DNA of 36,943 nucleotides, taken from NCBI GenBank assembly GCA_964498735.1, contig CAZCHJ010000002.1:1-36943 (forward strand). The letters are read 5' to 3'. Shown piece by piece: positions 1 through 28,638 of the stretch. Made by a program: the position numbers and the translations under genes. Numbering within the stretch: position 1 is the first letter of the stretch; each line of letters starts with the position of its first letter. Source of the DNA: an uncultured Gammaproteobacteria bacterium. Lineage in GTDB: Bacteria; Patescibacteriota; Patescibacteriia; Magasanikbacterales; UBA922. The notes below the pieces were generated by a model. The model made no database searches and was not told the DNA's origin. It saw only the letters and a list, made by a program, of their open reading frames with translations.

Positions 1-107
1 GGCCTTTTTGCACCTCTTCCACACGTTTATTCACAACTTGTCTTCTTGTTTTTTACTTGTCGCGATATACTGATCATCGACGCGCGATCGAGTACGTCGT
101 TTTATAA

Positions 108-156
108 GTCTTGTGTTCTCCGCTTTCCCTCTCTCTCACAAGACGAGAGGGAGAGC
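108..156 (+). promoter_or_regulatory. Leader RNA structure with two interlocking stems (108-115/137-144 and 122-133/145-156) upstream of the first CDS
   Basis: GTCTTGTG/CACAAGAC is an exact inverted repeat. GCTTTCCCTCTC/GAGAGGGAGAGC gives a 12-bp pairing with one G-U. Checked by hand. Confidence 0.35.
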
Positions 157-172
157 AGAGAAAAAATCAAAT

Positions 173-883
173 ATGAAAATAAGTAACATCGAGGTACCTT
201 ACGCCCAAATACCAAACGGCGTGCTCTTCGATCCAACGCTTTCTTGGAAAGCAAAAGGTGTATGGGCGTATATTCAAGCAAAACCGAATGATTGGGATTT
301 TTCTTCCGAACGTATGGCCGGAGATTCAATCGACGGAGTTCGCGCTACGAGATCGGGTATCGACGAACTCATTGAAAAAGGATATCTTGTCGCTCGACGT
401 TTACAGTCGGGAAGAATGGAATACTCTCTCACCGAAAAAGCCATAAGTACAAAAAGCCACAATGCTAAAACCGCACTGTGCCAAAACAGCACTGATAATA
501 AAGAAAGAATTATTACAAAGAAAGATACTAAACAAACTACTCCGGCAAAGCCGGAGAGCGACGAACTCTTTCTTTCTTTTTGGGAATCATATCCAAAGAG
601 GAAACGTGATCGAGAGCTATGCCGTAAAAAGTTTTTGAGTTTTGAGCTTGAGCTTCAGAGAAAGATAGTCGAAGACGTTCGTACTCGTCGAGTGAAGCAT
701 ACCGATTGGGTAAAAGAAAATGGCCGCTTTGTATGTGCTCCGATCGTATACCTTCGCGGTAAACGTTGGGAAGAAGAGATCGACAACGCTGGACTTCAAA
801 AGATCTCGAATGTTCACCACAACGAGCCGGTCGCTGGAAAGAAAAGTGCCGCCGAAAAATTAAAAGCTAAACAAGAAAAATAA
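173..883 (+). CDS. Replication initiator / replisome organizer (DnaD-like winged helix plus conserved phage C-terminal domain)
   Basis: Lies in ORF 113..883; I prefer the ATG at 173 (MKISNIEVPYAQIPNGVLFD). wHTH-like segment GVRATRSGIDELIEKGYLVARR. The C-terminus FLSFWESYPKRK...YLRGKRWEEE resembles the conserved phage replication-protein C-terminus. It sits directly upstream of a DnaC-like loader. Confidence 0.6.
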   Translation: MKISNIEVPYAQIPNGVLFDPTLSWKAKGVWAYIQAKPNDWDFSSERMAGDSIDGVRATRSGIDELIEKGYLVARRLQSGRMEYSLTEKAISTKSHNAKTALCQNSTDNKERIITKKDTKQTTPAKPESDELFLSFWESYPKRKRDRELCRKKFLSFELELQRKIVEDVRTRRVKHTDWVKENGRFVCAPIVYLRGKRWEEEIDNAGLQKISNVHHNEPVAGKKSAAEKLKAKQEK

Positions 884-885
884 TC

Positions 886-1407
886 ATGCAAAAATACAAA
901 GAAGCTTCGATCGATAAGATCGACAAAAAACTTCACGCGAAAATAAAGAAGCTCGTCGAAGTAAACGAAAAGGAGAAGAAGATAGTTTTCTCGAAAGGTT
1001 TGTTTCTCTATGGAGGCACCGGCACCGGAAAGACATACATACTCCAAGCAATAAAAAATCGAGTGAGAGAGATCTCTCACCGCACCGGAATCGTGTATGA
1101 AAATTGGGTGGATCTTTTGATCGATCTCCGTTCCGATTTCAATATGCTCCGATCTCGTATCGACGATATCACTTCGAAGGACGTGATCATGCTCGATGAT
1201 CTCGGATCGGAAAAGCAAACGGAATGGTCTCAAGAGATCCTTTATGCGATCGTGAATAAAGCTTACAACACCGAAAAAAGGATCTTCCTCGCGACGAATC
1301 TTTCTCTCCAACAGTTCGAGGATAAGTACGGCGATCGCATTTTGTCGAGGTTGGGAGAGACGTGCGAAATGCTTGAAATTAAAGGGGAAGATCGCCGTCT
1401 CGAATAG
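886..1407 (+). CDS. DnaC/IstB-like AAA+ ATPase (helicase loader)
   Basis: Walker A GLFLYGGTGTGKTY and Walker B VIMLDDLGSE. Size and position after the initiator are typical. Confidence 0.75.
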   Translation: MQKYKEASIDKIDKKLHAKIKKLVEVNEKEKKIVFSKGLFLYGGTGTGKTYILQAIKNRVREISHRTGIVYENWVDLLIDLRSDFNMLRSRIDDITSKDVIMLDDLGSEKQTEWSQEILYAIVNKAYNTEKRIFLATNLSLQQFEDKYGDRILSRLGETCEMLEIKGEDRRLE

Positions 1408-1423
1408 TTTTTCCACAAATCAC

Positions 1424-1452
1424 TTGCTTTTATCTTGCGATTTTTCTATACT
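1424..1452 (+). promoter_or_regulatory. sigma70-type promoter TTGCTT-17 nt-TATACT
   Basis: -35 at 1424-1429 and -10 at 1447-1452. Only 6 nt separate the -10 from the ATG at 1459, which predicts a leaderless transcript. Confidence 0.5.
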
Positions 1453-1458
1453 GTTTAC

Positions 1459-1677
1459 ATGGCAAAAAGAGAACTAACTTCAAAGGAAAGAGAGGCTCTT
1501 GCCGAAAAGCTCGATCGATTAGTAGCTCCGGCAAGATCAAAAAAGATCTTTCGCTCGTGCTACGGATTGAATGACGGAATCTCGAAAAGCAACGCCGAAG
1601 TCGGGAAGCGATTCAAGATCACCGGCGAAGCGGTTCGTCAGACGGTCGCAAAGATCGAGGTGCTATTGCAAAAATAA
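1459..1677 (+). CDS. Free-standing sigma70 region 4 (4.2 HTH)-like protein, 72 aa
   Basis: RSCYGLNDGISKSNAEVGKRFKITGEAVRQTVAKIEVLL parallels RpoD region 4.2 [39 protein letters not shown] (recalled from memory). No region 2 or 3 is present. Confidence 0.55.
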   Translation: MAKRELTSKEREALAEKLDRLVAPARSKKIFRSCYGLNDGISKSNAEVGKRFKITGEAVRQTVAKIEVLLQK

Positions 1678-1728
1678 TTGTCGGGTATATGCCACCTTAC
1701 GGCTAGATTCAACGCGAACAAAATCAGT

Positions 1729-1953
1729 ATGCAAAATACAATCAACAACATCTTCACGTTTATCATCATCGCTCTTCTCGTGGTTATTACCGCGCAGATC
1801 TTCGGTGAAGGAATGAAGCGTGAAGAGATCGTCGAGTGCAATAAGTGGGAAAAGCAAGCGGAAACTTTTCCGAGTTTCTATCTCACTAAATGGCAAGACG
1901 ATCAATGCCGCGCACACGGTATCGTGATCAATACGACAGTCATCGAAAAGTAG
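1729..1953 (+). CDS. Small membrane protein
   Basis: Internal ATG of ORF 1678..1953. One hydrophobic helix, IFTFIIIALLVVITAQIF. Confidence 0.4.
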   Translation: MQNTINNIFTFIIIALLVVITAQIFGEGMKREEIVECNKWEKQAETFPSFYLTKWQDDQCRAHGIVINTTVIEK

Positions 1954-1974
1954 TCCTTTCGAGCTGTCTTTTTT
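1943..1974 (+). terminator. Weak hairpin plus T-run after the 1729..1953 CDS
   Basis: TCGAAAAG...CTTTCGA forms a 7-bp stem with one bulge, followed 5 nt later by TTTTTT. Confidence 0.25.
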
Positions 1975-1994
1975 ATTGTTTAATTTTAGAAACT

Positions 1995-2825
1995 ATGCAA
2001 ATTACCAAAACGACGGACGCGGCTTCAAAGCCTTCGCTCGTCATGCTTGTATACGGAAACGGTGGTGTCGGAAAGACAACGTTCGGAAGCACGGCTCCGA
2101 AACCTCTTCTTGTCGATTGCGAGAACGGAGCGAAATACTTCGGTCTTCGCGGTATCGAAATGGACGTCGCAAAGATTTCGAAATGGGAAGACATTCAAGG
2201 TCTCCACGAGATCGCACGAAGCGGAGATTATGAGACGATCATCATCGATCCGATCGGTGAGCTTATGGAGAAGCTCAAGGTGTACATGGTCAGCCTCAAG
2301 AATCCGAAAAACGTAATGCCGGACGGATCTCCGACAATGGCCGGTTGGGGTTGGCTCAAGGACGCAATGAAGTCAATGCTCAAGCAACTTCGCGATACCG
2401 GAGTGAATATCCTTCTCGTCGCGCACGTCGAAGAAAAAGACGTCGAAGGAACACTCGTGAAGCGCCCGAAGATACTCACGAAGATCTCCGAAGATCTTAT
2501 CGCTTTCGTGGACGTTGTCGGCTACATGCAAGCCGTAACTGTGAATGAAGACAATCAGCCGGTAACGAAGCGTATTATCCGTGTACAGCCTTCGGAGACG
2601 TATGAAGCGAAGGATCGCACGAATCAGCTTGGCGCAATCATTCCGCCGAACTTCTCCGAGATCATCGAAGCAACAAGCGGAACGAAGACGTTCAAGTGGT
2701 CAAAGAACGCTGAAGCCGCCCCAAAAAAGGAAGAGAAGAACGAAGAGACAACTCCTTCCAAAAAAGACGGCATGAAAGACAAGCTCAATGCCGCCGCAAA
2801 AAAGGGAGCTAAATCCAAGAAGTAG
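1995..2825 (+). CDS. Sak4-like / AAA_24 RecA-fold ATPase (recombination)
   Basis: Starts MQITK inside ORF 1890..2825. P-loop LVYGNGGVGKTTF, then PLLVDCENG and a Walker B-like TIIIDPIGEL. Lys-rich tail. Confidence 0.75.
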   Translation: MQITKTTDAASKPSLVMLVYGNGGVGKTTFGSTAPKPLLVDCENGAKYFGLRGIEMDVAKISKWEDIQGLHEIARSGDYETIIIDPIGELMEKLKVYMVSLKNPKNVMPDGSPTMAGWGWLKDAMKSMLKQLRDTGVNILLVAHVEEKDVEGTLVKRPKILTKISEDLIAFVDVVGYMQAVTVNEDNQPVTKRIIRVQPSETYEAKDRTNQLGAIIPPNFSEIIEATSGTKTFKWSKNAEAAPKKEEKNEETTPSKKDGMKDKLNAAAKKGAKSKK

Positions 2826-2828
2826 TCT

Positions 2829-3011
2829 ATGGAAGAACTCTCATTCAATTTTCCTGCAATAAGCCTTCCGGTGCATGTTCAAGTCGGGAAGGCGAATTAC
2901 ATCGACGTTCCTGATTTTGAGATTGTGATCAATGCCGAGACGAATGAAGTCGTCGGCGTCCTTTCTCCGAAACAGATCGCCGTCGGTAAGACACTCAAAA
3001 AAAATGGCTAA
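2829..3011 (+). CDS. Hypothetical protein (60 aa)
   Basis: Fills the gap between neighbouring genes in the + orientation. No motif recognised. Confidence 0.35.
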   Translation: MEELSFNFPAISLPVHVQVGKANYIDVPDFEIVINAETNEVVGVLSPKQIAVGKTLKKNG

Positions 3012-3924
3012 AACAAAAGACATGAAACCATACGTTCCAAAAGGTGAAGTCGTCTCGTTCTATGGCGGCAAGGTGCAGATCGAAAAAAAGCCGTGGGGAG
3101 AAAGTTTCAGGTACATCAAGATCGAAACAGGCGTCGGCGGAATACTTTCCGCCACCGCTTGCACCGGAAAACTCAACAAACCGGCTTTGATAAAATGGGC
3201 GGTAGATCTCTCGGCTGATCACATGATCGCCCATTTCTCTCAAGCGTGCGCCGAAAATCCAAAGACATTCGCTCTCGAAGAGATCATTGCGGTTGCGGAG
3301 CAAGCTCGAAACAAACACGAAGAGAAGAAGACTGAAGGCGGAGAAGCCGGAGATATCATTCACAATTACGCGCACGATTTCGCAAAAGCTGTGATTGCAA
3401 AGAAACCTCTTCCAACATTCGACCACCTCGACGAAAAAAACACCGTCGAGAATCGCGCCCTCAACGGAATCAATGCTTTCCTTTCTTGGTACAATCTTCA
3501 TCACGTCGAGTTCCTCGCAATGGAAGAGCTTGTGTACTACAACTCATATCTCGCCGGTGATACGAAGGCCGGTGAAGACATCATCGAGTACCTCGGAATC
3601 ATGGACTTGCTCGCTCGCATAGACGGAAAGATCGAAGTGATCGATTACAAGTCTTCCAAAGGGGTATATAACGATCAGCGCTATCAAGTATCAGGGTACT
3701 TCAATGCTCACAATTCAAACGCTCTCCGCGATCGAAAAGCGAGTGGCGCTCGAATCGTAAACTTCAGCAAGGACACCGGAGATCTCATTGAGAAAGCCGT
3801 TCCGGCCGAAGAAGTGATGAAAGATTATCGAGCTTTTATTGGGTTGTTCATGGTAGCAACGCGAGAAAAAGAACTCGACGCGGAATATCGCGCATTACAA
3901 AAGACAGCTAACAACAAAGAATAA
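3004..3924 (+). CDS. PD-(D/E)XK (RecB/Cas4-like) exonuclease
   Basis: Starts MAKTKDMKPY inside ORF 2932..3924. Nuclease core MDLLARIDGKIEVIDYKSSK, followed by a QVSGY (QxxxY)-type motif. Flanked by Sak4 and SSB. Confidence 0.65.
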   Translation: MAKTKDMKPYVPKGEVVSFYGGKVQIEKKPWGESFRYIKIETGVGGILSATACTGKLNKPALIKWAVDLSADHMIAHFSQACAENPKTFALEEIIAVAEQARNKHEEKKTEGGEAGDIIHNYAHDFAKAVIAKKPLPTFDHLDEKNTVENRALNGINAFLSWYNLHHVEFLAMEELVYYNSYLAGDTKAGEDIIEYLGIMDLLARIDGKIEVIDYKSSKGVYNDQRYQVSGYFNAHNSNALRDRKASGARIVNFSKDTGDLIEKAVPAEEVMKDYRAFIGLFMVATREKELDAEYRALQKTANNKE

Positions 3925-3928
3925 TTCT

Positions 3929-4459
3929 ATGAATCTCAACAAAGTACACCTCATCGGGCGCCTTACTCGTGATCCTGAATTGAAAGCTCTTCCGAGCGGA
4001 TCGAAAGTTGTGAGTTTTTCAATCGCAACGACGCGCGTGTGGCTCGACGAAAACAAGGCAAAGCAAGAGGCGACAGATTTTCACAACCTCGTCGCCTTCG
4101 GCCGCCAAGCAGAAACGCTCGCGCAGTACACGAAGAAAGGACACTTGATCTATCTCGAAGGGCGTATGCAAACTCGCTCATGGGAAGACGAATCGAGCGG
4201 TAAAAAAATGTACCGTTGCGAAGTGGTCGTCGAAGGTTTTCAGTTTGCTCCAAAAGCGGCAAATGCCGGAGTGAGTGAAGGATCTCAAGACGTAGCGTTT
4301 CCGGAAGAAGATCGTCCGGCACGCGCACCGGCTCGCGGTGCATACGGAAAGGGCGGTGCGAAAAAGAAGACGACGACAACGAAACGAGCAACGCCGTCCG
4401 GAGGGGATAGTGTCGATTACCCTTCCGATGATATCAACGCAGAGGACATTCCTTTTTAA
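3929..4459 (+). CDS. ssb: Single-stranded DNA-binding protein
   Basis: OB-fold N-terminus MNLNKVHLIGRLTRDPELKALPSGSKVVSFSIATTRVW, a Gly/Pro-rich linker, and the acidic tail DDINAEDIPF. Confidence 0.9.
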   Translation: MNLNKVHLIGRLTRDPELKALPSGSKVVSFSIATTRVWLDENKAKQEATDFHNLVAFGRQAETLAQYTKKGHLIYLEGRMQTRSWEDESSGKKMYRCEVVVEGFQFAPKAANAGVSEGSQDVAFPEEDRPARAPARGAYGKGGAKKKTTTTKRATPSGGDSVDYPSDDINAEDIPF

Positions 4460-4463
4460 TCAA

Positions 4464-4661
4464 ATGTGGAAAATAGACGGTATTCTCATAAAAGACGAAG
4501 AGGCTCTCCGCGAGCATTGTGCGAATAACATCACGCAATCCGGAAAGCCCTTCAAACAGGATTTCCGTGTGGCGGCAAATGCTTACCGCATGGCACCAAG
4601 CGATCTTCTTGCCCTAGTCGAGCACCTCGGTCATACCGTGGAGAAGGTCGAGGAAGAATAG
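4464..4661 (+). CDS. Hypothetical protein (65 aa)
   Basis: Internal ATG of ORF 4338..4661, placed just after the ssb stop. Confidence 0.4.
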   Translation: MWKIDGILIKDEEALREHCANNITQSGKPFKQDFRVAANAYRMAPSDLLALVEHLGHTVEKVEEE

Positions 4662-4662
4662 T

Positions 4663-4980
4663 ATGCAGATTACACAAAAACAAATTGAAGAGCAGTTCGC
4701 ACAAATGGCACCGCTCGGCAAAGTAAATAGAGAAAAATCGATCTCGAATTACGAAAAGATCGAGACGATTATGAAGGAAGCTTTGCCGAAGAAAATATGG
4801 TGGTTTGCGTATGAGTTCGTCGGCCGCACGCAAACGATGAAACACGGAGAAGTATTCATCAGCTACGAGATCTCCGCACGTTTGGCTGAAATGGTCGATG
4901 AAGGATTAGTGATAACCGCGAGATCGGAAGGCAAGCTCAATCTATATCGATTACCGGATCATGTTCTCGTTTCGAGATAA
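4663..4980 (+). CDS. Hypothetical protein, possible winged-helix
   Basis: ORF abuts its neighbours. The segment ISARLAEMVDEGLVITARSEGKLNLYRL looks wHTH-like. Confidence 0.4.
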   Translation: MQITQKQIEEQFAQMAPLGKVNREKSISNYEKIETIMKEALPKKIWWFAYEFVGRTQTMKHGEVFISYEISARLAEMVDEGLVITARSEGKLNLYRLPDHVLVSR

Positions 4981-5315
4981 TGAATCACATTCCGAAGTGG
5001 CTCAATGATTCTTTCAATGATGATCCCTATTACAAAAAATGTTGTCTCGCTTTCCTCGGAGGTTGTAATGGGAGGATCGAAAGACACCACGCTTTGATCT
5101 TCGCAGGGCGACAAGTGCAAGCTCGATTCTGTATTCTTCCGGCGTGTCATGCTCATCACGAACTTGCTCGCCGGAAAGATATCAAAGAGCGCTTCGATTG
5201 GATCCTCTTGAATCGTGCGAATATGGGCGAATTACTAGCGATAAGTAAGGCCGAAAATTACGTCGCAATAAGAGATCGGCTCAATGAAAAATATGGCGCA
5301 TACAAATACCGGTAG
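4980..5315 (+). CDS. Cys/His-rich HNH-like zinc-binding protein
   Basis: CCLAFLGGCNGRIERHH...FCILPACHAHH fits the C..C..HH...PxCxxHH pattern of small His-Me finger proteins. Confidence 0.4.
   Translation: MNHIPKWLNDSFNDDPYYKKCCLAFLGGCNGRIERHHALIFAGRQVQARFCILPACHAHHELARRKDIKERFDWILLNRANMGELLAISKAENYVAIRDRLNEKYGAYKYR
5228..5238 (+). promoter_or_regulatory. Copy of the recurrent motif CGAATTACTAG
   Basis: This exact 11-mer is also found at 14407 and 22062. Here it lies inside a CDS, 45 nt upstream of the ATG at 5284. Confidence 0.35.
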
Positions 5316-5868
5316 ATACATTCTTGCAATCGTTGTGATCGGCATTTCTTCGCTCATAGTGTTATCATTATTTTCGAAGCACCCCTCCATTCTTCCGGCG
5401 TCTCGGGCGCCTGAAAATCCGGAGGTAAAAGTGCCGATCGAAGTGCCGGTCGTGGATTTCACGGACGCACAAGATCAGCCGGTAAAAAAACCGGCACCAA
5501 AAGCCGAGCCGAAAGTCGAATCTCCGGCACCGGCACCATTACAAAATAATCAGGTAGATCCGAAACCGGAAGAAACGCAACCAACGACGATCGTGAATAT
5601 AACAACTTCACCGACGACGGTGATCGTAAATACTCCGGCTCCGGAAACGCCACAAGCACCAATGCCAACGAGCGCAAAAACGTACAACATCACGAAAGGC
5701 ACAGAGCCTTTCAAGCAGAATCTTACCGAAGCAGAAGTTCGAGAGTTCGCAGGATCTCTCAACAACTATGTGAAGTGGAAGAAGCAAATGAAGGAGGCCG
5801 ATCTTGAGATCGTCTTCGGTGCTCTCTCATCAAACGGTTATGCAGTTCAAGAAAACGATCCGCAATAA
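5284..5868 (+). CDS. Membrane-anchored Pro/Thr-rich protein
   Basis: N-terminal TM helix YILAIVVIGISSLIVLSLF followed by a Pro-rich spacer. An alternative ATG is at 5293. Confidence 0.5.
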   Translation: MKNMAHTNTGRYILAIVVIGISSLIVLSLFSKHPSILPASRAPENPEVKVPIEVPVVDFTDAQDQPVKKPAPKAEPKVESPAPAPLQNNQVDPKPEETQPTTIVNITTSPTTVIVNTPAPETPQAPMPTSAKTYNITKGTEPFKQNLTEAEVREFAGSLNNYVKWKKQMKEADLEIVFGALSSNGYAVQENDPQ

Positions 5869-6199
5869 ACCCGTCGGCGAGAAGGAAAGCGACGTTCAAA
5901 ACACGATATGCGAATATCTTGAATTGAAACGTCGCTGTTTCTTCCGCCTCAACAACATTCCAGCTTTCAATCGCGGTGGTGAAGGAGGATTCACGATGAG
6001 ACGTCTTCCAAAGTACACACCGAAAGGGCTTCCGGATATTATCGTGATCGCCGGAGGACTGTTCTTTGGTCTCGAAGTGAAGAAGTCGGACGGCCGACAA
6101 TCACCGGATCAAAAAGCTTTCGAGAAATGGGTGAAAGATCACGGCGGCCGATACCACGTCGTCAGATCGGTCGAAGACGTAAAAGCTATCGGGTTATGA
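5804..6199 (+). CDS. VRR-NUC domain nuclease
   Basis: GLPDIIVIAGGLFFGLEVKKSDGRQSPDQKAFEKWVKDHGGRYHVV contains the D...ExK core and the Q of VRR-NUC. The TTG start at 5804 has AAGGAGG 6 nt upstream. An alternative ATG is at 5840. Confidence 0.7.
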   Translation: MRSSSVLSHQTVMQFKKTIRNKPVGEKESDVQNTICEYLELKRRCFFRLNNIPAFNRGGEGGFTMRRLPKYTPKGLPDIIVIAGGLFFGLEVKKSDGRQSPDQKAFEKWVKDHGGRYHVVRSVEDVKAIGL

Positions 6200-6342
6200 A
6201 TATAAAAAACTTGCGCGAATGGCTGATCTATAAAAAAGGAGAAGTGAGCACCGCAGTAAATCGAGAAGCAACGATCGGGGAGCTAATGCAGGTCGTCGAG
6301 CTTCTTGTTGAGAAGGAGGAAAATGAAAACAAAGATCATTAA
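6196..6342 (+). CDS. Hypothetical protein (48 aa)
   Basis: ATGA overlap with the VRR-NUC stop. Sequence begins MNIKNLREWLIYKKGE. Confidence 0.35.
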   Translation: MNIKNLREWLIYKKGEVSTAVNREATIGELMQVVELLVEKEENENKDH

Positions 6343-6730
6343 AAAACGTCCTCCGTTTTGGAGAATCCTGAAGATCTTTTTTCCGGAGTACGATCCGGAC
6401 GGAACGGTCTCCGTCGCTTTCGGCCGAACGATCTACACAAACCAAGAGATCCCGAAGGACTACATCGTGCACGAAGAACAGCACCTCAAGCAACATTGTC
6501 ATTCGTACACGATCGCGGTGCTTTGGTGGATCATGTATTGCCTCTCGAAGAGCTTCCGTTATTCGCAAGAGCGAGACGCCTTCCGTACTCAATTCAAATG
6601 GATCATGGAGAATGAGCCGTGGACGCGAGCACGCAAGATCGTCGAACTCGCAAAAGGTCTCTCGTCTCCGCTCTATGGATCAATGGTCGATGAGCGACAG
6701 GCACAAAAAGAATTGCTCATGTATGAATAA
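6323..6730 (+). CDS. Small HExxH-motif protein (putative zincin)
   Basis: ATG at 6323 is preceded by GAAGGAGGAAA. Motif IVHEEQHLKQH. Confidence 0.45.
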   Translation: MKTKIIKKRPPFWRILKIFFPEYDPDGTVSVAFGRTIYTNQEIPKDYIVHEEQHLKQHCHSYTIAVLWWIMYCLSKSFRYSQERDAFRTQFKWIMENEPWTRARKIVELAKGLSSPLYGSMVDERQAQKELLMYE

Positions 6731-7199
6731 AAAAATCAAAAAGCAAAAGCATACTCGCACAAAGCGAGCGATCGAGCCGGACGAGATCGTGGAGACGAAA
6801 GACTTCGCCGCGACGGTTGTGCTCAAAGACGGAAAGAAAGGATTTCAAGTCGATTCTCCGGCGTGGTACCAAACGCAAATGAATAAGTTCAAGGAGGGCG
6901 ACAAAGTCTCGATCTATATCTCGACACGCCGTCCAAAGCGCACGCTTCGACAGAATCGTTTCTATTGGAAATATCTCACGATGATCGGAGAGGAAACCGG
7001 AGAGCGTAATACCGAGAGCCTTCACAAGCTCTTCTCCGGAATGTTTCTCACCGAAGAGATCAAAGAGGTGCTCGGCCGTCAGGTTCGTATTGTGAAGAGC
7101 ACAACGACGCTCTCAAAGCATGATTTTGGCGAGTACATCGACAAGATCCACGCCGAAACCGGTATCGATCTACCGCCAACGGCCGACGAATTGGACTAG
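6723..7199 (+). CDS. NinB/Orf-like recombination mediator
   Basis: Starts MNKKIKK inside ORF 6612..7199. RRPKRTLRQNRFYWKYL parallels lambda NinB RNRSLDQNRKLWACL, and STTTLSKHDFGEYIDKIHAETGIDL parallels STSRMRVGEFAELLELIQAFG (recalled from memory). Confidence 0.6.
   Translation: MNKKIKKQKHTRTKRAIEPDEIVETKDFAATVVLKDGKKGFQVDSPAWYQTQMNKFKEGDKVSIYISTRRPKRTLRQNRFYWKYLTMIGEETGERNTESLHKLFSGMFLTEEIKEVLGRQVRIVKSTTTLSKHDFGEYIDKIHAETGIDLPPTADELD
7187..7199 (+). promoter_or_regulatory. Variant copy of the recurrent motif (CGAATTGGACTAG)
   Basis: CGAATTGGACTAGCAAG compares with CGAATCATTACTAGCAAG at 21812. Its TAG is the stop codon of the NinB-like gene. Confidence 0.3.
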
Positions 7200-7253
7200 C
7201 AAGAAAAAAACAAGTTTATCCACACCGGCCGAGTGGAGATCTCTTTCCGGAGG

Positions 7254-7262
7254 TGGTAAAAT
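7254..7262 (+). promoter_or_regulatory. Extended -10 element TGGTAAAAT
   Basis: Member of the TGGTAtAAT family seen at 11060, 16363, 18846 and 27887. It lies in the 109-nt gap before the ATG at 7309. Confidence 0.35.
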
Positions 7263-7308
7263 TAGGAGGTCAAAGGCTCAAATTATTATTTAATTTTTAA
7301 GAAAAACT

Positions 7309-7752
7309 ATGTTTGAAGCGATCATGTTCATGTTATTCGGGAAGCGTTGGGTGAAGTATCAAATGCTCACCGGTCTCAAGGGTGCAATCTTCGTAAACGA
7401 AATGGAGGTTGCAATGGATAAGGAAAAATACAACAAGGCAGTCGCCGCGAAAGAACAGCTTGAGAAGGATTACGCGGCTCTTCTTGAAACACCTCTCACC
7501 GATCCGAAAGAACTTCTCTCCGAAGAAGACTTGAAGAGTGAGAAAATGGTGTACGACATTCGAAAGAAGCTTGAAGCAGAACGTAAGGAGGCCGTCGAAG
7601 CTTTCAAGGTGAAGATCAAGGAGGCAACCTCCGAAGTCTCCGTCGCTGAAGCCAATATGGATCGTACTTACGGAATCTCTTACAGCAACCGTCGAAAGTT
7701 TGATTTTATCAGGGGCTATAAAATTGTTCCGACATACGCGGACAAGAAGTAA
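7309..7752 (+). CDS. Hypothetical coiled-coil protein
   Basis: Long + ORF with a Glu/Lys-rich heptad-like sequence. A later in-frame start is possible. Confidence 0.45.
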   Translation: MFEAIMFMLFGKRWVKYQMLTGLKGAIFVNEMEVAMDKEKYNKAVAAKEQLEKDYAALLETPLTDPKELLSEEDLKSEKMVYDIRKKLEAERKEAVEAFKVKIKEATSEVSVAEANMDRTYGISYSNRRKFDFIRGYKIVPTYADKK

Positions 7753-7757
7753 AAGTT

Positions 7758-16332: not shown

Positions 16333-16362
16333 TGTGGATAACGTGCTTGCAATAATAAAAAA

Positions 16363-16371
16363 TGGTATACT
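16363..16371 (+). promoter_or_regulatory. Extended -10 element TGGTATACT
   Basis: Lies in the 76-nt gap after terL, 37 nt before the ATG at 16409. Confidence 0.4.
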
Positions 16372-18845: not shown

Positions 18846-18854
18846 TGGTATAAT
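18846..18854 (+). promoter_or_regulatory. Extended -10 promoter TGGTATAAT
   Basis: Eleven nt separate the -10 from the ATG at 18866. Confidence 0.45.
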
Positions 18855-18865
18855 TTGATCATCGA

Positions 18866-19222
18866 ATGAAAGAACTTCTCGCAAGAATGGGAATAAAAGA
18901 AGAGGATCTCAATAAGCAAGAGATCCAAACTCTCAAGGCATGGGCGGAGGCTCTTGAGAAAAACATTCTCAAAGTCGAAGACATCAAAAAGTACCTTGAT
19001 AAAATGATCGTTTCCGTCGAGAAAGAGATCTCCGGTTACGATTACCCGAAAGACTTTTCATCAATGCTTTTCCGGAGACGACGTCTCCGCCACATGAAAG
19101 CTCGATTGTATAACTACATTATGCTTCGAGATTTCATCACGGCGCCGGAAGAGGCGAGGTCGTACATTGAAAAGCATATTAGCAACTTTAATCTTGAAAA
19201 GCTGAATGGCAACAAAAAATAA
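18866..19222 (+). CDS. Hypothetical coiled-coil protein (118 aa)
   Basis: + ORF with a GAATG start, located after the portal gene. Confidence 0.45.
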   Translation: MKELLARMGIKEEDLNKQEIQTLKAWAEALEKNILKVEDIKKYLDKMIVSVEKEISGYDYPKDFSSMLFRRRRLRHMKARLYNYIMLRDFITAPEEARSYIEKHISNFNLEKLNGNKK

Positions 19223-27886: not shown

Positions 27887-27895
27887 TGGTACAAT
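27887..27895 (+). promoter_or_regulatory. Extended -10 promoter TGGTACAAT
   Basis: Eleven nt separate the -10 from the ATG at 27907. Confidence 0.4.
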
Positions 27896-27906
27896 AAAAA
27901 CATCGA

Positions 27907-28638
27907 ATGACACTACTTGAAGCAAAACAAAAACTTGCAAAAAAGCTTGATATCGATTACTCCGATATCGCAAACAACGATCTCTTTTCAGATGATGATC
28001 TTTCTGAATATCTTGCCGATTCTTGCCAAGAAGCATACAACTTCGCATTTTGGGATTACTCGGAACATTCAAAGATCGCAACGCTTGAATCGGACGATCT
28101 TACCGCCGGATATGTACCATACCCGAATGATATTCTTCCGTCTTCTCTTTGGTACTTGAAGATCAACGGTAAAGAGTTCAAAAGGAGATCTTTCACCGGA
28201 TATCAGCGATACTTCGAAGAGAATCCGACGGCAACAGATCGATTCTTTACCGAGTTTAAGCGAAGCATTTTCTTTAACGCGAACGCTACTTCCGCCGGTC
28301 AGTCTATCGAAGTATTCGGTAAGCGATCATGGCAGAAAATCTCGGCCGACGCCGATCTTATGCCTTTCTCTCCGGACACCGACGATCAAGAGAACTCCGG
28401 CAATTCCGCGATTGTTACACTCGCATATTCAAAAGCCCTCTCAAGTGAAAAGCTTAAAAACTCTACACAGGGAGCTATCGAGGAAAAGCGTGCGTATGGA
28501 ATCTTCGGAGCACTCAAGAAGCAAGTCGATGAGAGCCGAGCATTGGAGCAGTCGTCGAATACTCCTATGTTCAACGTTCCTGATTTTTTCAAAGGTAACA
28601 ACGGAGCTTCCGATCAAGGTCGCTTCTCTCGCAATTAG
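27907..28638 (+). CDS. Hypothetical structural protein (243 aa)
   Basis: + ORF in the tail gene block with a GAATG start. Confidence 0.5.
   Translation: MTLLEAKQKLAKKLDIDYSDIANNDLFSDDDLSEYLADSCQEAYNFAFWDYSEHSKIATLESDDLTAGYVPYPNDILPSSLWYLKINGKEFKRRSFTGYQRYFEENPTATDRFFTEFKRSIFFNANATSAGQSIEVFGKRSWQKISADADLMPFSPDTDDQENSGNSAIVTLAYSKALSSEKLKNSTQGAIEEKRAYGIFGALKKQVDESRALEQSSNTPMFNVPDFFKGNNGASDQGRFSRN

Follow-up and report, generated by a model that had tools for sequence, protein, structure and literature searches.

A free-standing sigma domain 4 protein predicted in a phage of an uncultured bacterium, and the conserved tandem-repeat promoter module that accompanies its gene

What would a phage do with the promoter-reading end of a primary sigma factor from which the rest has been removed? 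This question is raised by a gene near the beginning of contig CAZCHJ010000002.1 (GenBank assembly GCA_964498735.1), a stretch of 36,943 nucleotides (nt) that is the entire contig C2 of a 986-kb, 95-contig, 88%-complete bin and is called the window here. Judged from its annotated genes, the window appears to be a phage of ~37 kb; its long open reading frames (ORFs) are all on the + strand, and the small genome and the binning point to a host bacterium of the candidate phyla radiation (CPR)/Patescibacteria type. The gene encodes a 72-amino acid (aa) protein, MAKRELTSKEREALAEKLDRLVAPARSKKIFRSCYGLNDGISKSNAEVGKRFKITGEAVRQTVAKIEVLLQK, that, according to a preliminary description, may be a sigma70 region 4 decoy. 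The start coordinate 1424 given there is the first base of a TTGCTT hexamer; the ORF itself begins with the ATG at 1459. A TTG start at 1435, which would give 80 aa, was discarded because homologues begin with MAKK, MANK or MIT at the position of the ATG at 1459. As set out below, we tentatively suggest, giving it somewhat less than an even chance, that the 72-aa protein is a sigma domain 4-derived DNA-binding autoregulator of early -35-dependent promoters, an action that promoters of the extended -10 type would escape.

The relationship of the 72-aa protein to sigma factors was evaluated with the single sequence and with profiles. The single sequence scored 19.1 bits against the Pfam model Sigma70_r4 (PF04545; E = 9e-4), which is below the gathering cut-off of 24.1, and was matched by PHROG 351, 'RNA polymerase sigma factor', with E = 3.6e-4. 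PF04545 was matched by 10 of 16 family members at E < 0.01 (best 3.2e-6), and member P0032 carries a precomputed match to it. A profile of the 16 members, compared with the PDB, matched region 4 of SigA (8h3v_G) over profile positions 7 to 62 with E = 2.5e-14, and a total of 58 sigma sequences were matched there with E < 0.01. The alignment with SigA ran from the helix preceding region 4.1 through region 4.1 to the recognition helix of region 4.2. The C-terminus of the RpoD protein encoded in the same bin (on contig C35) was 42 to 45% identical to the 72-aa protein (BLASTP E = 9e-11), and the signature YGLxDG is common to the 72-aa protein and domain 4 of group 1 sigma factors.

The AlphaFold2 model of the 72-aa protein (predicted local distance difference test score, pLDDT, 85.4) contains four helices, at residues 8 to 20, 25 to 35, 45 to 51 and 56 to 71, of which helices 3 and 4 form the helix-turn-helix (HTH). 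The best Foldseek match was domain 4 of Staphylococcus aureus sigmaA (4g6d_A), with template modelling (TM) scores of 0.74/0.85 and a root-mean-square deviation of 1.6 Å, and every listed PDB match was a sigmaA domain 4, with query-normalized TM scores (TMq) of 0.61 to 0.74. The profile comparison, the model and the Foldseek matches all indicate that the 72-aa protein is a complete domain 4 of the group 1 type, comprising helix H1, region 4.1 and the region 4.2 HTH, and not a protein that resembles region 4.2 only, as had been proposed. Although the Pfam score fell short of its cut-off, it is outweighed by the family profile and by the predicted sigma domain 4 fold.

A search of the bin with the Sigma70_r2 profile gave matches only on the host contigs C32, C17, C18 and C24, and none in the window at E ≤ 1. 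Because the 72 aa are wholly domain 4 and the contig lacks a Sigma70_r2 match, the protein cannot be a sigma factor alone, which agrees with its earlier characterization as free-standing and without regions 2 and 3.

Relatives of the protein form a family of their own. A HMMER scan of 1.8 billion representatives recovered about a dozen relatives of 68 to 85 aa, together with the C-termini of true sigma factors. With the profile, at least 63 family clusters of 57 to 86 aa were found, all with scores of at least 77 bits, and sigma fragments scored 65 bits or less, leaving a clean gap. The members lie mostly on phage contigs of 34 to 38 kb, and a few had already been labelled 'sigma70/sigma32' by the Joint Genome Institute. 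A tblastn search of the INPHARED cultured phages found no close homologue, just weak matches of 36 to 45% in unannotated records, which resemble bacterial sigmaA. As a separate observation, the metagenomic proteins P0012 (749 aa), P0017 (938 aa), P0019 (682 aa), P0023, P0025 and P0033 contain many tandem sigma region 4-like units; 3 to 5 stretches were matched per protein, with more visible in the full sequences, and P0019 resembles a sigma factor plus four additional copies of region 4.

We then consider how the gene is transcribed. The hexamers TTGCTT and TATACT, their 17-nt spacer and the 6 nt to the ATG are as previously described (Table 1). TTGCTT agrees with TTGACA at 3 of 6 positions and the whole site with the consensus at 8 of 12; a consensus promoter scan did not list this site, and the total number of sites that it found was no more than in shuffled sequence. 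We take the promoter to be real because its layout is conserved across loci, and not because of its match to the consensus. The hexamer that had been called a good -35 is not good as judged by sequence.

In 15 diverged loci, namely, the window and 14 others (L003, L005/L006, L007/L020, L018, L019, L021, L069/L070, L071, L072, L073 and L092-L095), the homologous gene is preceded by the layout CTTGC, 16 to 17 nt, TAnnnT, 6 to 9 nt, ATG. The proteins of the 14 other loci are 37 to 71% identical to the window protein, and the intergenic DNA is otherwise unalignable. The shared module reads, in order, a DnaA-box-like 9-mer, 5 to 18 nt, (A)CTTGC, exactly 6 nt, (A)CTTG(C/T), 7 to 8 nt (19 in L094), TAnnnT, 6 to 9 nt and ATG, where the 9-mer is mostly TTATCCACA in the homologous loci and TTTTCCACA in the window. 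The C-T-T-G core of both pentamers was present in 11 of 11 aligned loci and the first C of repeat 2 in 10 of the 11, with a variable 6-nt linker, and the same pattern was seen in four more loci (L092-L095). There are variants: the second repeat is degenerate in L019 (TTTGG), there are three repeats in L092, and a TATACT lies 17 nt from the second repeat of L094.

The -10 hexamers of the homologues are TATACT, TATGAT, TATTAT, TAGAAT, TACAAT or TAATAT, the first pentamer is positioned as a -35 element (TTGCAA, TTGCTT or TTGCTA) with a spacer of 16 to 17 nt, and none of the -10 hexamers checked (in loci other than L092-L095) has a TG extension. It is fair to infer from this comparison that the promoter of the sigma-4-like gene is -35-dependent. 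Because the distance from the -10 to the ATG is 6 to 9 nt in all 15 loci, transcription would start on the A of the ATG or no more than ~3 nt from it. Therefore, the mRNA is probably leaderless, as had been suspected, and the comparison of loci supports this well. No Shine-Dalgarno sequences were found anywhere in the phage. Many of its genes appear to start without a leader or nearly so, and the tRNA-Met that it encodes could, as an extra initiator tRNA, favour leaderless translation.

The repeat pair is not confined to this one promoter. The 986-kb bin has two exact copies of CTTGC-N6-CTTGC, and both are in the window (at 1423 on the + strand and at 12464 on the - strand), and the relaxed sequence CTTGY-N6-CTTGY occurs seven times, four of them on this 37-kb contig (at 45 and 1423 on the + strand and at 7199 and 12464 on the - strand). 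Within the bin, the repeat pair is phage-specific. In 11 loci (191 kb, with both strands counted), we found 19 matches to the repeat pair, compared to ~0.7 expected. All four pairs of the window lie in promoter gaps beside a DnaA-box-like 9-mer. The promoter of the replication initiator gene (rep) has the same module, with two of its CTTGT copies (at 45 and 56) 11 bp apart, and rep is preceded by equivalent sites in L003 (9170), L018 (1520), L092 (8610) and L094 (8497). The composite of a reverse-orientation pair and a DnaA box that begins at 7199 was found at the syntenic place in L003, L093, L094, L095 and the related phage G001, and in G001 a forward CTTGC-N6-CTTGA is located 2 nt from the TATAAT of the tRNA-Met gene. 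Because the distance to the -10 (2 to 8 nt) and the orientation vary, with the 11-bp register fixed, the pair is operator-like rather than -35-like.

The association between gene and motif was evaluated in 63 viral loci that have a related AAA_24 gene and enough upstream sequence. The sigma-4-like gene was present in 7 of the 63, with the strict motif upstream in six of these and a degenerate copy in the seventh, whereas the motif was found in 0 of the 56 loci without the gene. The closest AAA_24 relatives without the gene have different upstream or replication modules. Neither gene nor motif was found with distant relatives of the initiator protein (24 to 39% identity), which are too remote to inform.

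An alignment of 67 family members was mapped onto E. coli sigma70 numbering. The equivalent of E585 (E57) is conserved in 67 of 67 members and that of R588 (R60) in 66; the equivalents of R554 (R26; R/K in 67), T583 (T55; T/S in 67), T572 (S44; S/T in 65) and K593 (K65; K/R in 54) are also retained. Position 56, equivalent to R584, is G in 55 of the 67 and position 58, equivalent to R586, is A in 60. The equivalent of Q589 is L or Q, and a family-specific Lys is found at the position of A556 (K28; K/R in 66). In sigma70, E585 and R588 determine how the G:C pair at -33, which holds the G of TTG, is recognised, and -31 is read by R584 (review PMC2613000). As far as can be read from the alignment, the residues that read the 'TTG' part of the -35 are still present in the family and the one that reads the 'ACA' part is gone, and the replacement of R584 and R586 fits a motif that retains CTTG without ACA. 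The DNA-reading surface of the family thus appears to be under selection. Isolated region 4 peptides of sigma70 bind promoter DNA, according to the work of Dombroski et al. as it is cited in the same review.

Promoter-like elements without a -35 are found elsewhere in the window. The exact sequence TGNTATAAT occurs four times in the window compared to 0.43 expected, and none of 100 shuffles reached four. The four sites are on the coding strand and adjoin gene starts, and three versions with one mismatch lie in intergenic gaps (Table 1). At none of the seven was a -35 present at the proper spacing, and several are 7 to 11 nt from the next ATG. These numbers bear out the earlier remark that most other promoter-like sites in the window are TGnTATAAT elements without a -35. 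The phage appears to have two promoter classes, a few that bear a -35 and repeats (in the early replication region and at the tRNA) and about seven of the extended -10 type elsewhere. It was also seen that the segments 18855-18868 and 27896-27909 contain the same start context, ...ATCGAATG, 11 nt after the extended -10.

The DnaA-box-like sequence TTWTNCACA occurs six times in the window compared to 1.85 expected, and five of the six copies are in promoter gaps. Five copies lie 20 to 35 nt upstream of -10 elements, of the -35 type and the extended -10 type alike. DnaA boxes are found upstream of promoters in related phages as well, with three before the rep gene of L003. Host DnaA may gate transcription of the phage, as suggested by this arrangement.

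The mechanism that we favour is as follows. A clade of ~36-kb CPR phages keeps domain 4 of a primary sigma factor as a stand-alone gene, which would first be transcribed by the host sigmaA holoenzyme from its own promoter, probably to give a leaderless mRNA. Monomers of the protein would bind head-to-tail to (A)CTTG(C/T) pentamers 11 bp apart on one helix face, pentamers that overlap the -35 and the spacer of the gene's own early promoter and of the early rep and tRNA-Met promoters. As it accumulates, the 72-aa protein would either contest the TTG-containing -35 with sigmaA region 4 or make the spacer inaccessible, so that early transcription would be shut down or autoregulated and the seven extended -10 promoters without a -35 would keep working. 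Two points make repression or autoregulation the preferred outcome: the sites coincide in part with core elements of the promoters, and the early promoters have to be active when no phage protein is yet present. The data show the homology, the fold, the conserved base-reading residues, the conserved repeats with their enrichment in the phage, and the two promoter classes; we infer both that it is the 72-aa protein, and not another factor, that binds the repeats and that its effect is negative.

Competition for the -35 and autorepression were part of the preliminary description, and this part is indirectly in line with the overlap of the CTTGC pair with the gene's own -35 and spacer and with the near-invariant equivalents of E585 and R588. 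A genome-wide scope is not supported: the family has other residues in place of R584 and R586, and the tandem sites of the bin are concentrated on the phage contig, which together point to phage-specific operators rather than to a decoy for -35 elements in general.

Several points count against the favoured mechanism. The sign of the regulation is a guess, and cooperative tandem binding by the 72-aa protein is assumed; isolated sigma domain 4 proteins bind DNA weakly. The first repeat is placed as an ordinary -35 anyway, and the repeats could belong to the HTH_36 initiator, to host DnaA or to host sigmaA. The window protein has C34 where the family has K/R, and the recognition-helix variants (G/R at position 56 and Q/L at position 61) showed no covariation with the repeat sequence. 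Finally, phylogeny is a confounding factor in the joint occurrence of gene and motif, the gene-bearing phages being the closest clade.

A fuller form of the mechanism holds that the captured sigma domain 4 is a stand-alone repressor of tandem -35 mimics (ACTTGC, 11-bp spacing) that competes directly with sigmaA at early -35 elements and, with DnaA boxes upstream of nearly every phage promoter, sets the time at which -35-dependent leaderless early transcripts give way to middle and late transcripts from extended -10 promoters. We regard this form as rather unlikely to be right in full. If it were true, the phage would have built a temporal switch from a piece of the host promoter-recognition machinery and not from an anti-sigma factor.

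An explanation that dispenses with operators is that the free domain 4 acts on RNA polymerase (RNAP), where it would take the beta-flap tip or bind core or holoenzyme, displace sigmaA region 4 and disable -35 recognition globally, leaving the extended -10 promoters active, as in the case of T4 AsiA and P23-45 gp39. Helix H1 of the 72-aa protein has a conserved hydrophobic stripe, L14, L18 and L21, equivalent to L540, T544 and V547 of sigma70, positions that in the gp39 complex lie packed against the flap-tip helix (PMC3950348), and the combination of few -35-type sites with seven extended -10 sites matches the logic of gp39 described there. However, the 72-aa protein ends where helix H5 of sigma domain 4 would begin, and in the holoenzyme it is H5 that makes hydrophobic contact with the flap-tip helix (PMC3950348). 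A free domain would also have to out-compete the tethered domain of sigmaA, and a purely protein-protein decoy leaves unexplained both the strict conservation of the E585 and R588 equivalents and the conserved repeats. We consider a decoy of this type improbable.

The same repeats might instead be sites of positive action. Bound at repeat 2, or at reverse-orientation pairs farther upstream such as 7199-7214, the protein could contact sigmaA region 4 or RNAP, activate these promoters and thereby give positive feedback, or it could replace sigmaA region 4 on the flap and retarget RNAP to CTTGC promoters, in a manner resembling sigma appropriation. This explanation shares its evidence with the mechanism that we favour, and there are sigma-4-like activators, Tn916 Sig7-Sig8 and the phage regulators of the LtrA type, whose targets include their own promoter; repeat pairs also lie upstream of an extended -10 promoter (the 7199-7224 composite). 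Against it, early promoters fire before any phage protein is present and so cannot depend on the 72-aa protein, the pairs overlap the core promoter at 2 to 8 nt from the -10, which is typical of occlusion, and the protein is without an extra domain for contact with RNAP. For these reasons, we give activation a low probability.

It is also conceivable, with a lower probability still, that the repeats belong elsewhere, as iterons of the HTH_36 initiator, as sites for host DnaA or a partner of it, or as tandem -35 elements of sigmaA, and that the 72-aa protein is unrelated to them and, for example, soaks up an anti-sigma factor, a regulator or a defence sensor that docks on sigmaA region 4. The constant position of the repeats beside DnaA-box-like 9-mers, the fact that initiators classically bind direct repeats close to a rep gene, and the L094 arrangement described above would all be accounted for in this way. 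The sites, though, are spread over three or four promoters and not clustered as in an origin, iterons would be expected to have longer units than 5 bp repeated every 11 bp, there are possible separate AAAGAAAGA repeats inside the rep gene, and the invariant E585 and R588 equivalents are left unexplained.

Lastly, we regard as very improbable that the 72-aa protein is one subunit of a split sigma factor which, with an unrecognised region 2-like partner encoded elsewhere in the phage, reads CTTGC as -35 and TATACT as -10, for although the region 2 partners of known split sigma factors can escape sequence detection (bioRxiv 10.64898/2026.10.01.756105) and the motif in the gene's own promoter would allow positive feedback, the Sigma70_r2 search reported above gave no match on the contig (a very remote partner like RsoA could escape such a search), the neighbouring genes encode a DnaC-like loader upstream and a membrane protein downstream, no PHROG transcription match was found among the 24 other ORFs scanned (113 to 12451), the -10 is a standard sigmaA hexamer, and the later promoters, being without a -35, need no region 4.

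The coordinates of these features, with those of the genes around them, are shown in Table 1.

Table 1. Features of the window, with positions counted from its first nucleotide
Feature	Position	Strand	Remarks
rep promoter, same module: TTATTCACA (27-35), CTTGT at 37, 45 and 56, TATACT (66-71)	27-71	+	
HTH_36 replication initiator (rep gene)	contig C2	+	profile annotation
DnaC/IstB-like helicase loader	886-1407	+	directly upstream of the sigma-4-like gene
DnaA-box-like 9-mer TTTTCCACA (fits TTWTNCACA)	1409-1417	+	5 nt upstream of repeat 1
Tandem direct repeat CTTGC-N6-CTTGC, 11-bp periodicity, proposed operator	1423-1438	+	
-35 element TTGCTT	1424-1429	+	within repeat 1; repeat 2 in the spacer
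-10 element TATACT, no TG extension	1447-1452	+	17-nt spacer after TTGCTT; 6 nt to the ATG
Coding sequence of the 72-aa free-standing sigma domain 4 protein (P0001)	1459-1677	+	ATG at 1459; stop ends at 1677
Sak4-like AAA_24 ATPase, exonuclease, SSB, NinB-like protein, methyltransferases	contig C2	+	profile annotation
GCAAG-N6-ACAAG (reverse-orientation pair) abutting a perfect DnaA box TTATCCACA	7199-7224	+	upstream of the extended -10 at 7254
Extended -10 TGGTAAAAT	7254-7262	+	one mismatch; downstream of the 7199-7224 composite
Extended -10 TGCTATAAT, no -35	8865-8873	+	exact; 7 nt from ATG 8881
Extended -10 TGGTATAAT, no -35	11060-11068	+	exact; 10 nt from ATG 11079
tRNA-Met promoter: DnaA-box-like TTTTGCACA, GCAAG-N6-GCAAG (exact, reverse orientation), 6 nt, TATAAT	12455-12491	+	
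tRNA-Met(CAU)	12535-12606	+	
Extended -10-like TGGTATACT	16363-16371	+	one mismatch; gap before gene 16409; reverse DnaA box at 16333-16341
Extended -10 TGGTATAAT, no -35	18846-18854	+	exact; 11 nt from ATG 18866
Extended -10-like TGGTACAAT, no -35	27887-27895	+	one mismatch; 11 nt from ATG 27907
Extended -10 TGTTATAAT	36015-36023	+	exact; after the 1968-aa gene
TTWTNCACA copies	27-35, 1409-1417, 7216-7224, 12455-12463	+	
TTWTNCACA copies	16333-16341, 4465-4473	-	

The sigma-4-like gene lies in the replication module, with the helicase loader gene on one side and the genes of the Sak4-like ATPase, exonuclease and SSB on the other, and this gene order is kept in L003, L092-L095 and L005. The PHROG comparison covered 25 of the ~45 ORFs of the contig, all between 113 and 12451; a 512-aa ORF at 14794 is located ~13 kb downstream of the sigma-4-like gene. 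The gene immediately downstream (1729-1953) encodes a conserved single-pass membrane protein of 68 to 89 aa, the external domain of which has two conserved Cys residues (C..KW..QA...F.LT.WQ..QC...GI), and it keeps its position in L003, L093, L094 and L095. As a sigma region 2 partner of the sigma-4-like protein, it was discarded because it is a single-pass membrane protein.

Two other elements were noted at the rep gene. Its 5′ leader (~95 nt) contains a very stable hairpin at 115-165 (-38.6 kcal/mol, z -5.2), the loop of which, TCACAAG, is kept in L018 (1575-1625) together with the preceding TGTGTTCT, though the stem sequence differs; this hairpin may have a regulatory function as RNA or be bound by a protein. 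A search for iterons in and near the rep gene found just weak direct and inverted AAAGAAAGA repeats at 495-579, within the linker region of the initiator gene (D6 at 17-bp spacing, I4 and I11). This region is a candidate replication origin of the lambda O type.

To our knowledge, almost nothing is known about the control of transcription in uncultured CPR bacteria and their phages. The features described here would provide a first concrete and testable cis-regulatory map for such phages, on which two classes of promoter, leaderless starts, DnaA boxes and an operator made of repeats are placed. The known means by which phages redirect the RNAP of the host are anti-sigma factors (AsiA, gp39 and P7), sigma factors, whether full or split, and repressors of the ordinary kind. 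A free sigma domain 4 acting on -35-like operators would, if the favoured mechanism is true, be a different and very economical route, in which the host's own -35 reader is turned against -35-dependent promoters. With a small protein of 72 aa and a predicted site of 16 bp, the core of this claim can be tested without culturing the host.

How does the 72-aa protein compare to known systems? It is most like domain 4 of the primary sigma factors (SigA/RpoD, PF04545), with which it shares H1, regions 4.1 and 4.2, YGLxDG and the four-helix fold, and its family retains the equivalents of E585, R588, R554, T583 and K593. It differs from a primary sigma factor in being without regions 1 to 3 and the C-terminal H5 tail, in the R584 to G and R586 to A replacements, and in the extra Lys at A556.

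Among phage proteins, the LtrA family of late activators has been described as sigma70_r4-like (Quiles-Puchalt et al. 2013, PMC3753634), and RinA has limited similarity to region 4 (Ferrer et al. 2011, PMC3152322). These proteins of Gram-positive phages are also small phage regulators with sigma region 4 similarity and proposed recognition of promoter DNA. However, the LtrA and RinA genes directly precede terS and their products switch on the late operon, whereas the sigma-4-like gene is in a replication module and its motif overlaps early core promoters, and the similarity of LtrA and RinA to sigma factors is limited by description, the 72-aa protein being much closer to group 1 sigma factors. 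In split sigma factors (B. subtilis SigO-RsoA, Tn916 Sig7-Sig8, SPO1 gp33/gp34 and T4 gp55/gp33), a region 4 or region 4-like function is likewise on a separate small polypeptide, and Sig7 of Tn916 autoregulates its own promoter, as proposed here; the 72-aa protein differs from these in that no region 2 partner was detected, its neighbours are unrelated, and its -10 hexamers are ordinary sigmaA hexamers.

For T4 AsiA and gp39 of the Thermus phage P23-45, the predicted outcome is the same, with -35-dependent promoters off and extended -10 promoters on (PMC3950348), but their folds are unrelated, and here the actor would itself be a sigma domain 4, with DNA rather than RNAP as the likely target. 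Free-standing sigma-4-like folds of 62 to 142 aa are also found in BFVD among phage proteins labelled 'Sigma70_r4 domain-containing' (for example, A0A6J5LKM7 with 94 aa and A0A8S5N585 with 76 aa); these are uncharacterised and 16 to 26% identical, and none is known to have a promoter module of repeats, DnaA box and leaderless start. Free sigma-4-like polypeptides therefore have precedents. What is new is that the protein is so closely related to group 1 domain 4, together with its minimal size of 72 aa, the location in a replication module, the R584G and R586A changes and, above all, a conserved cis module of tandem -35 mimics, DnaA box and leaderless start at several promoters of a clade of ~36-kb phages.

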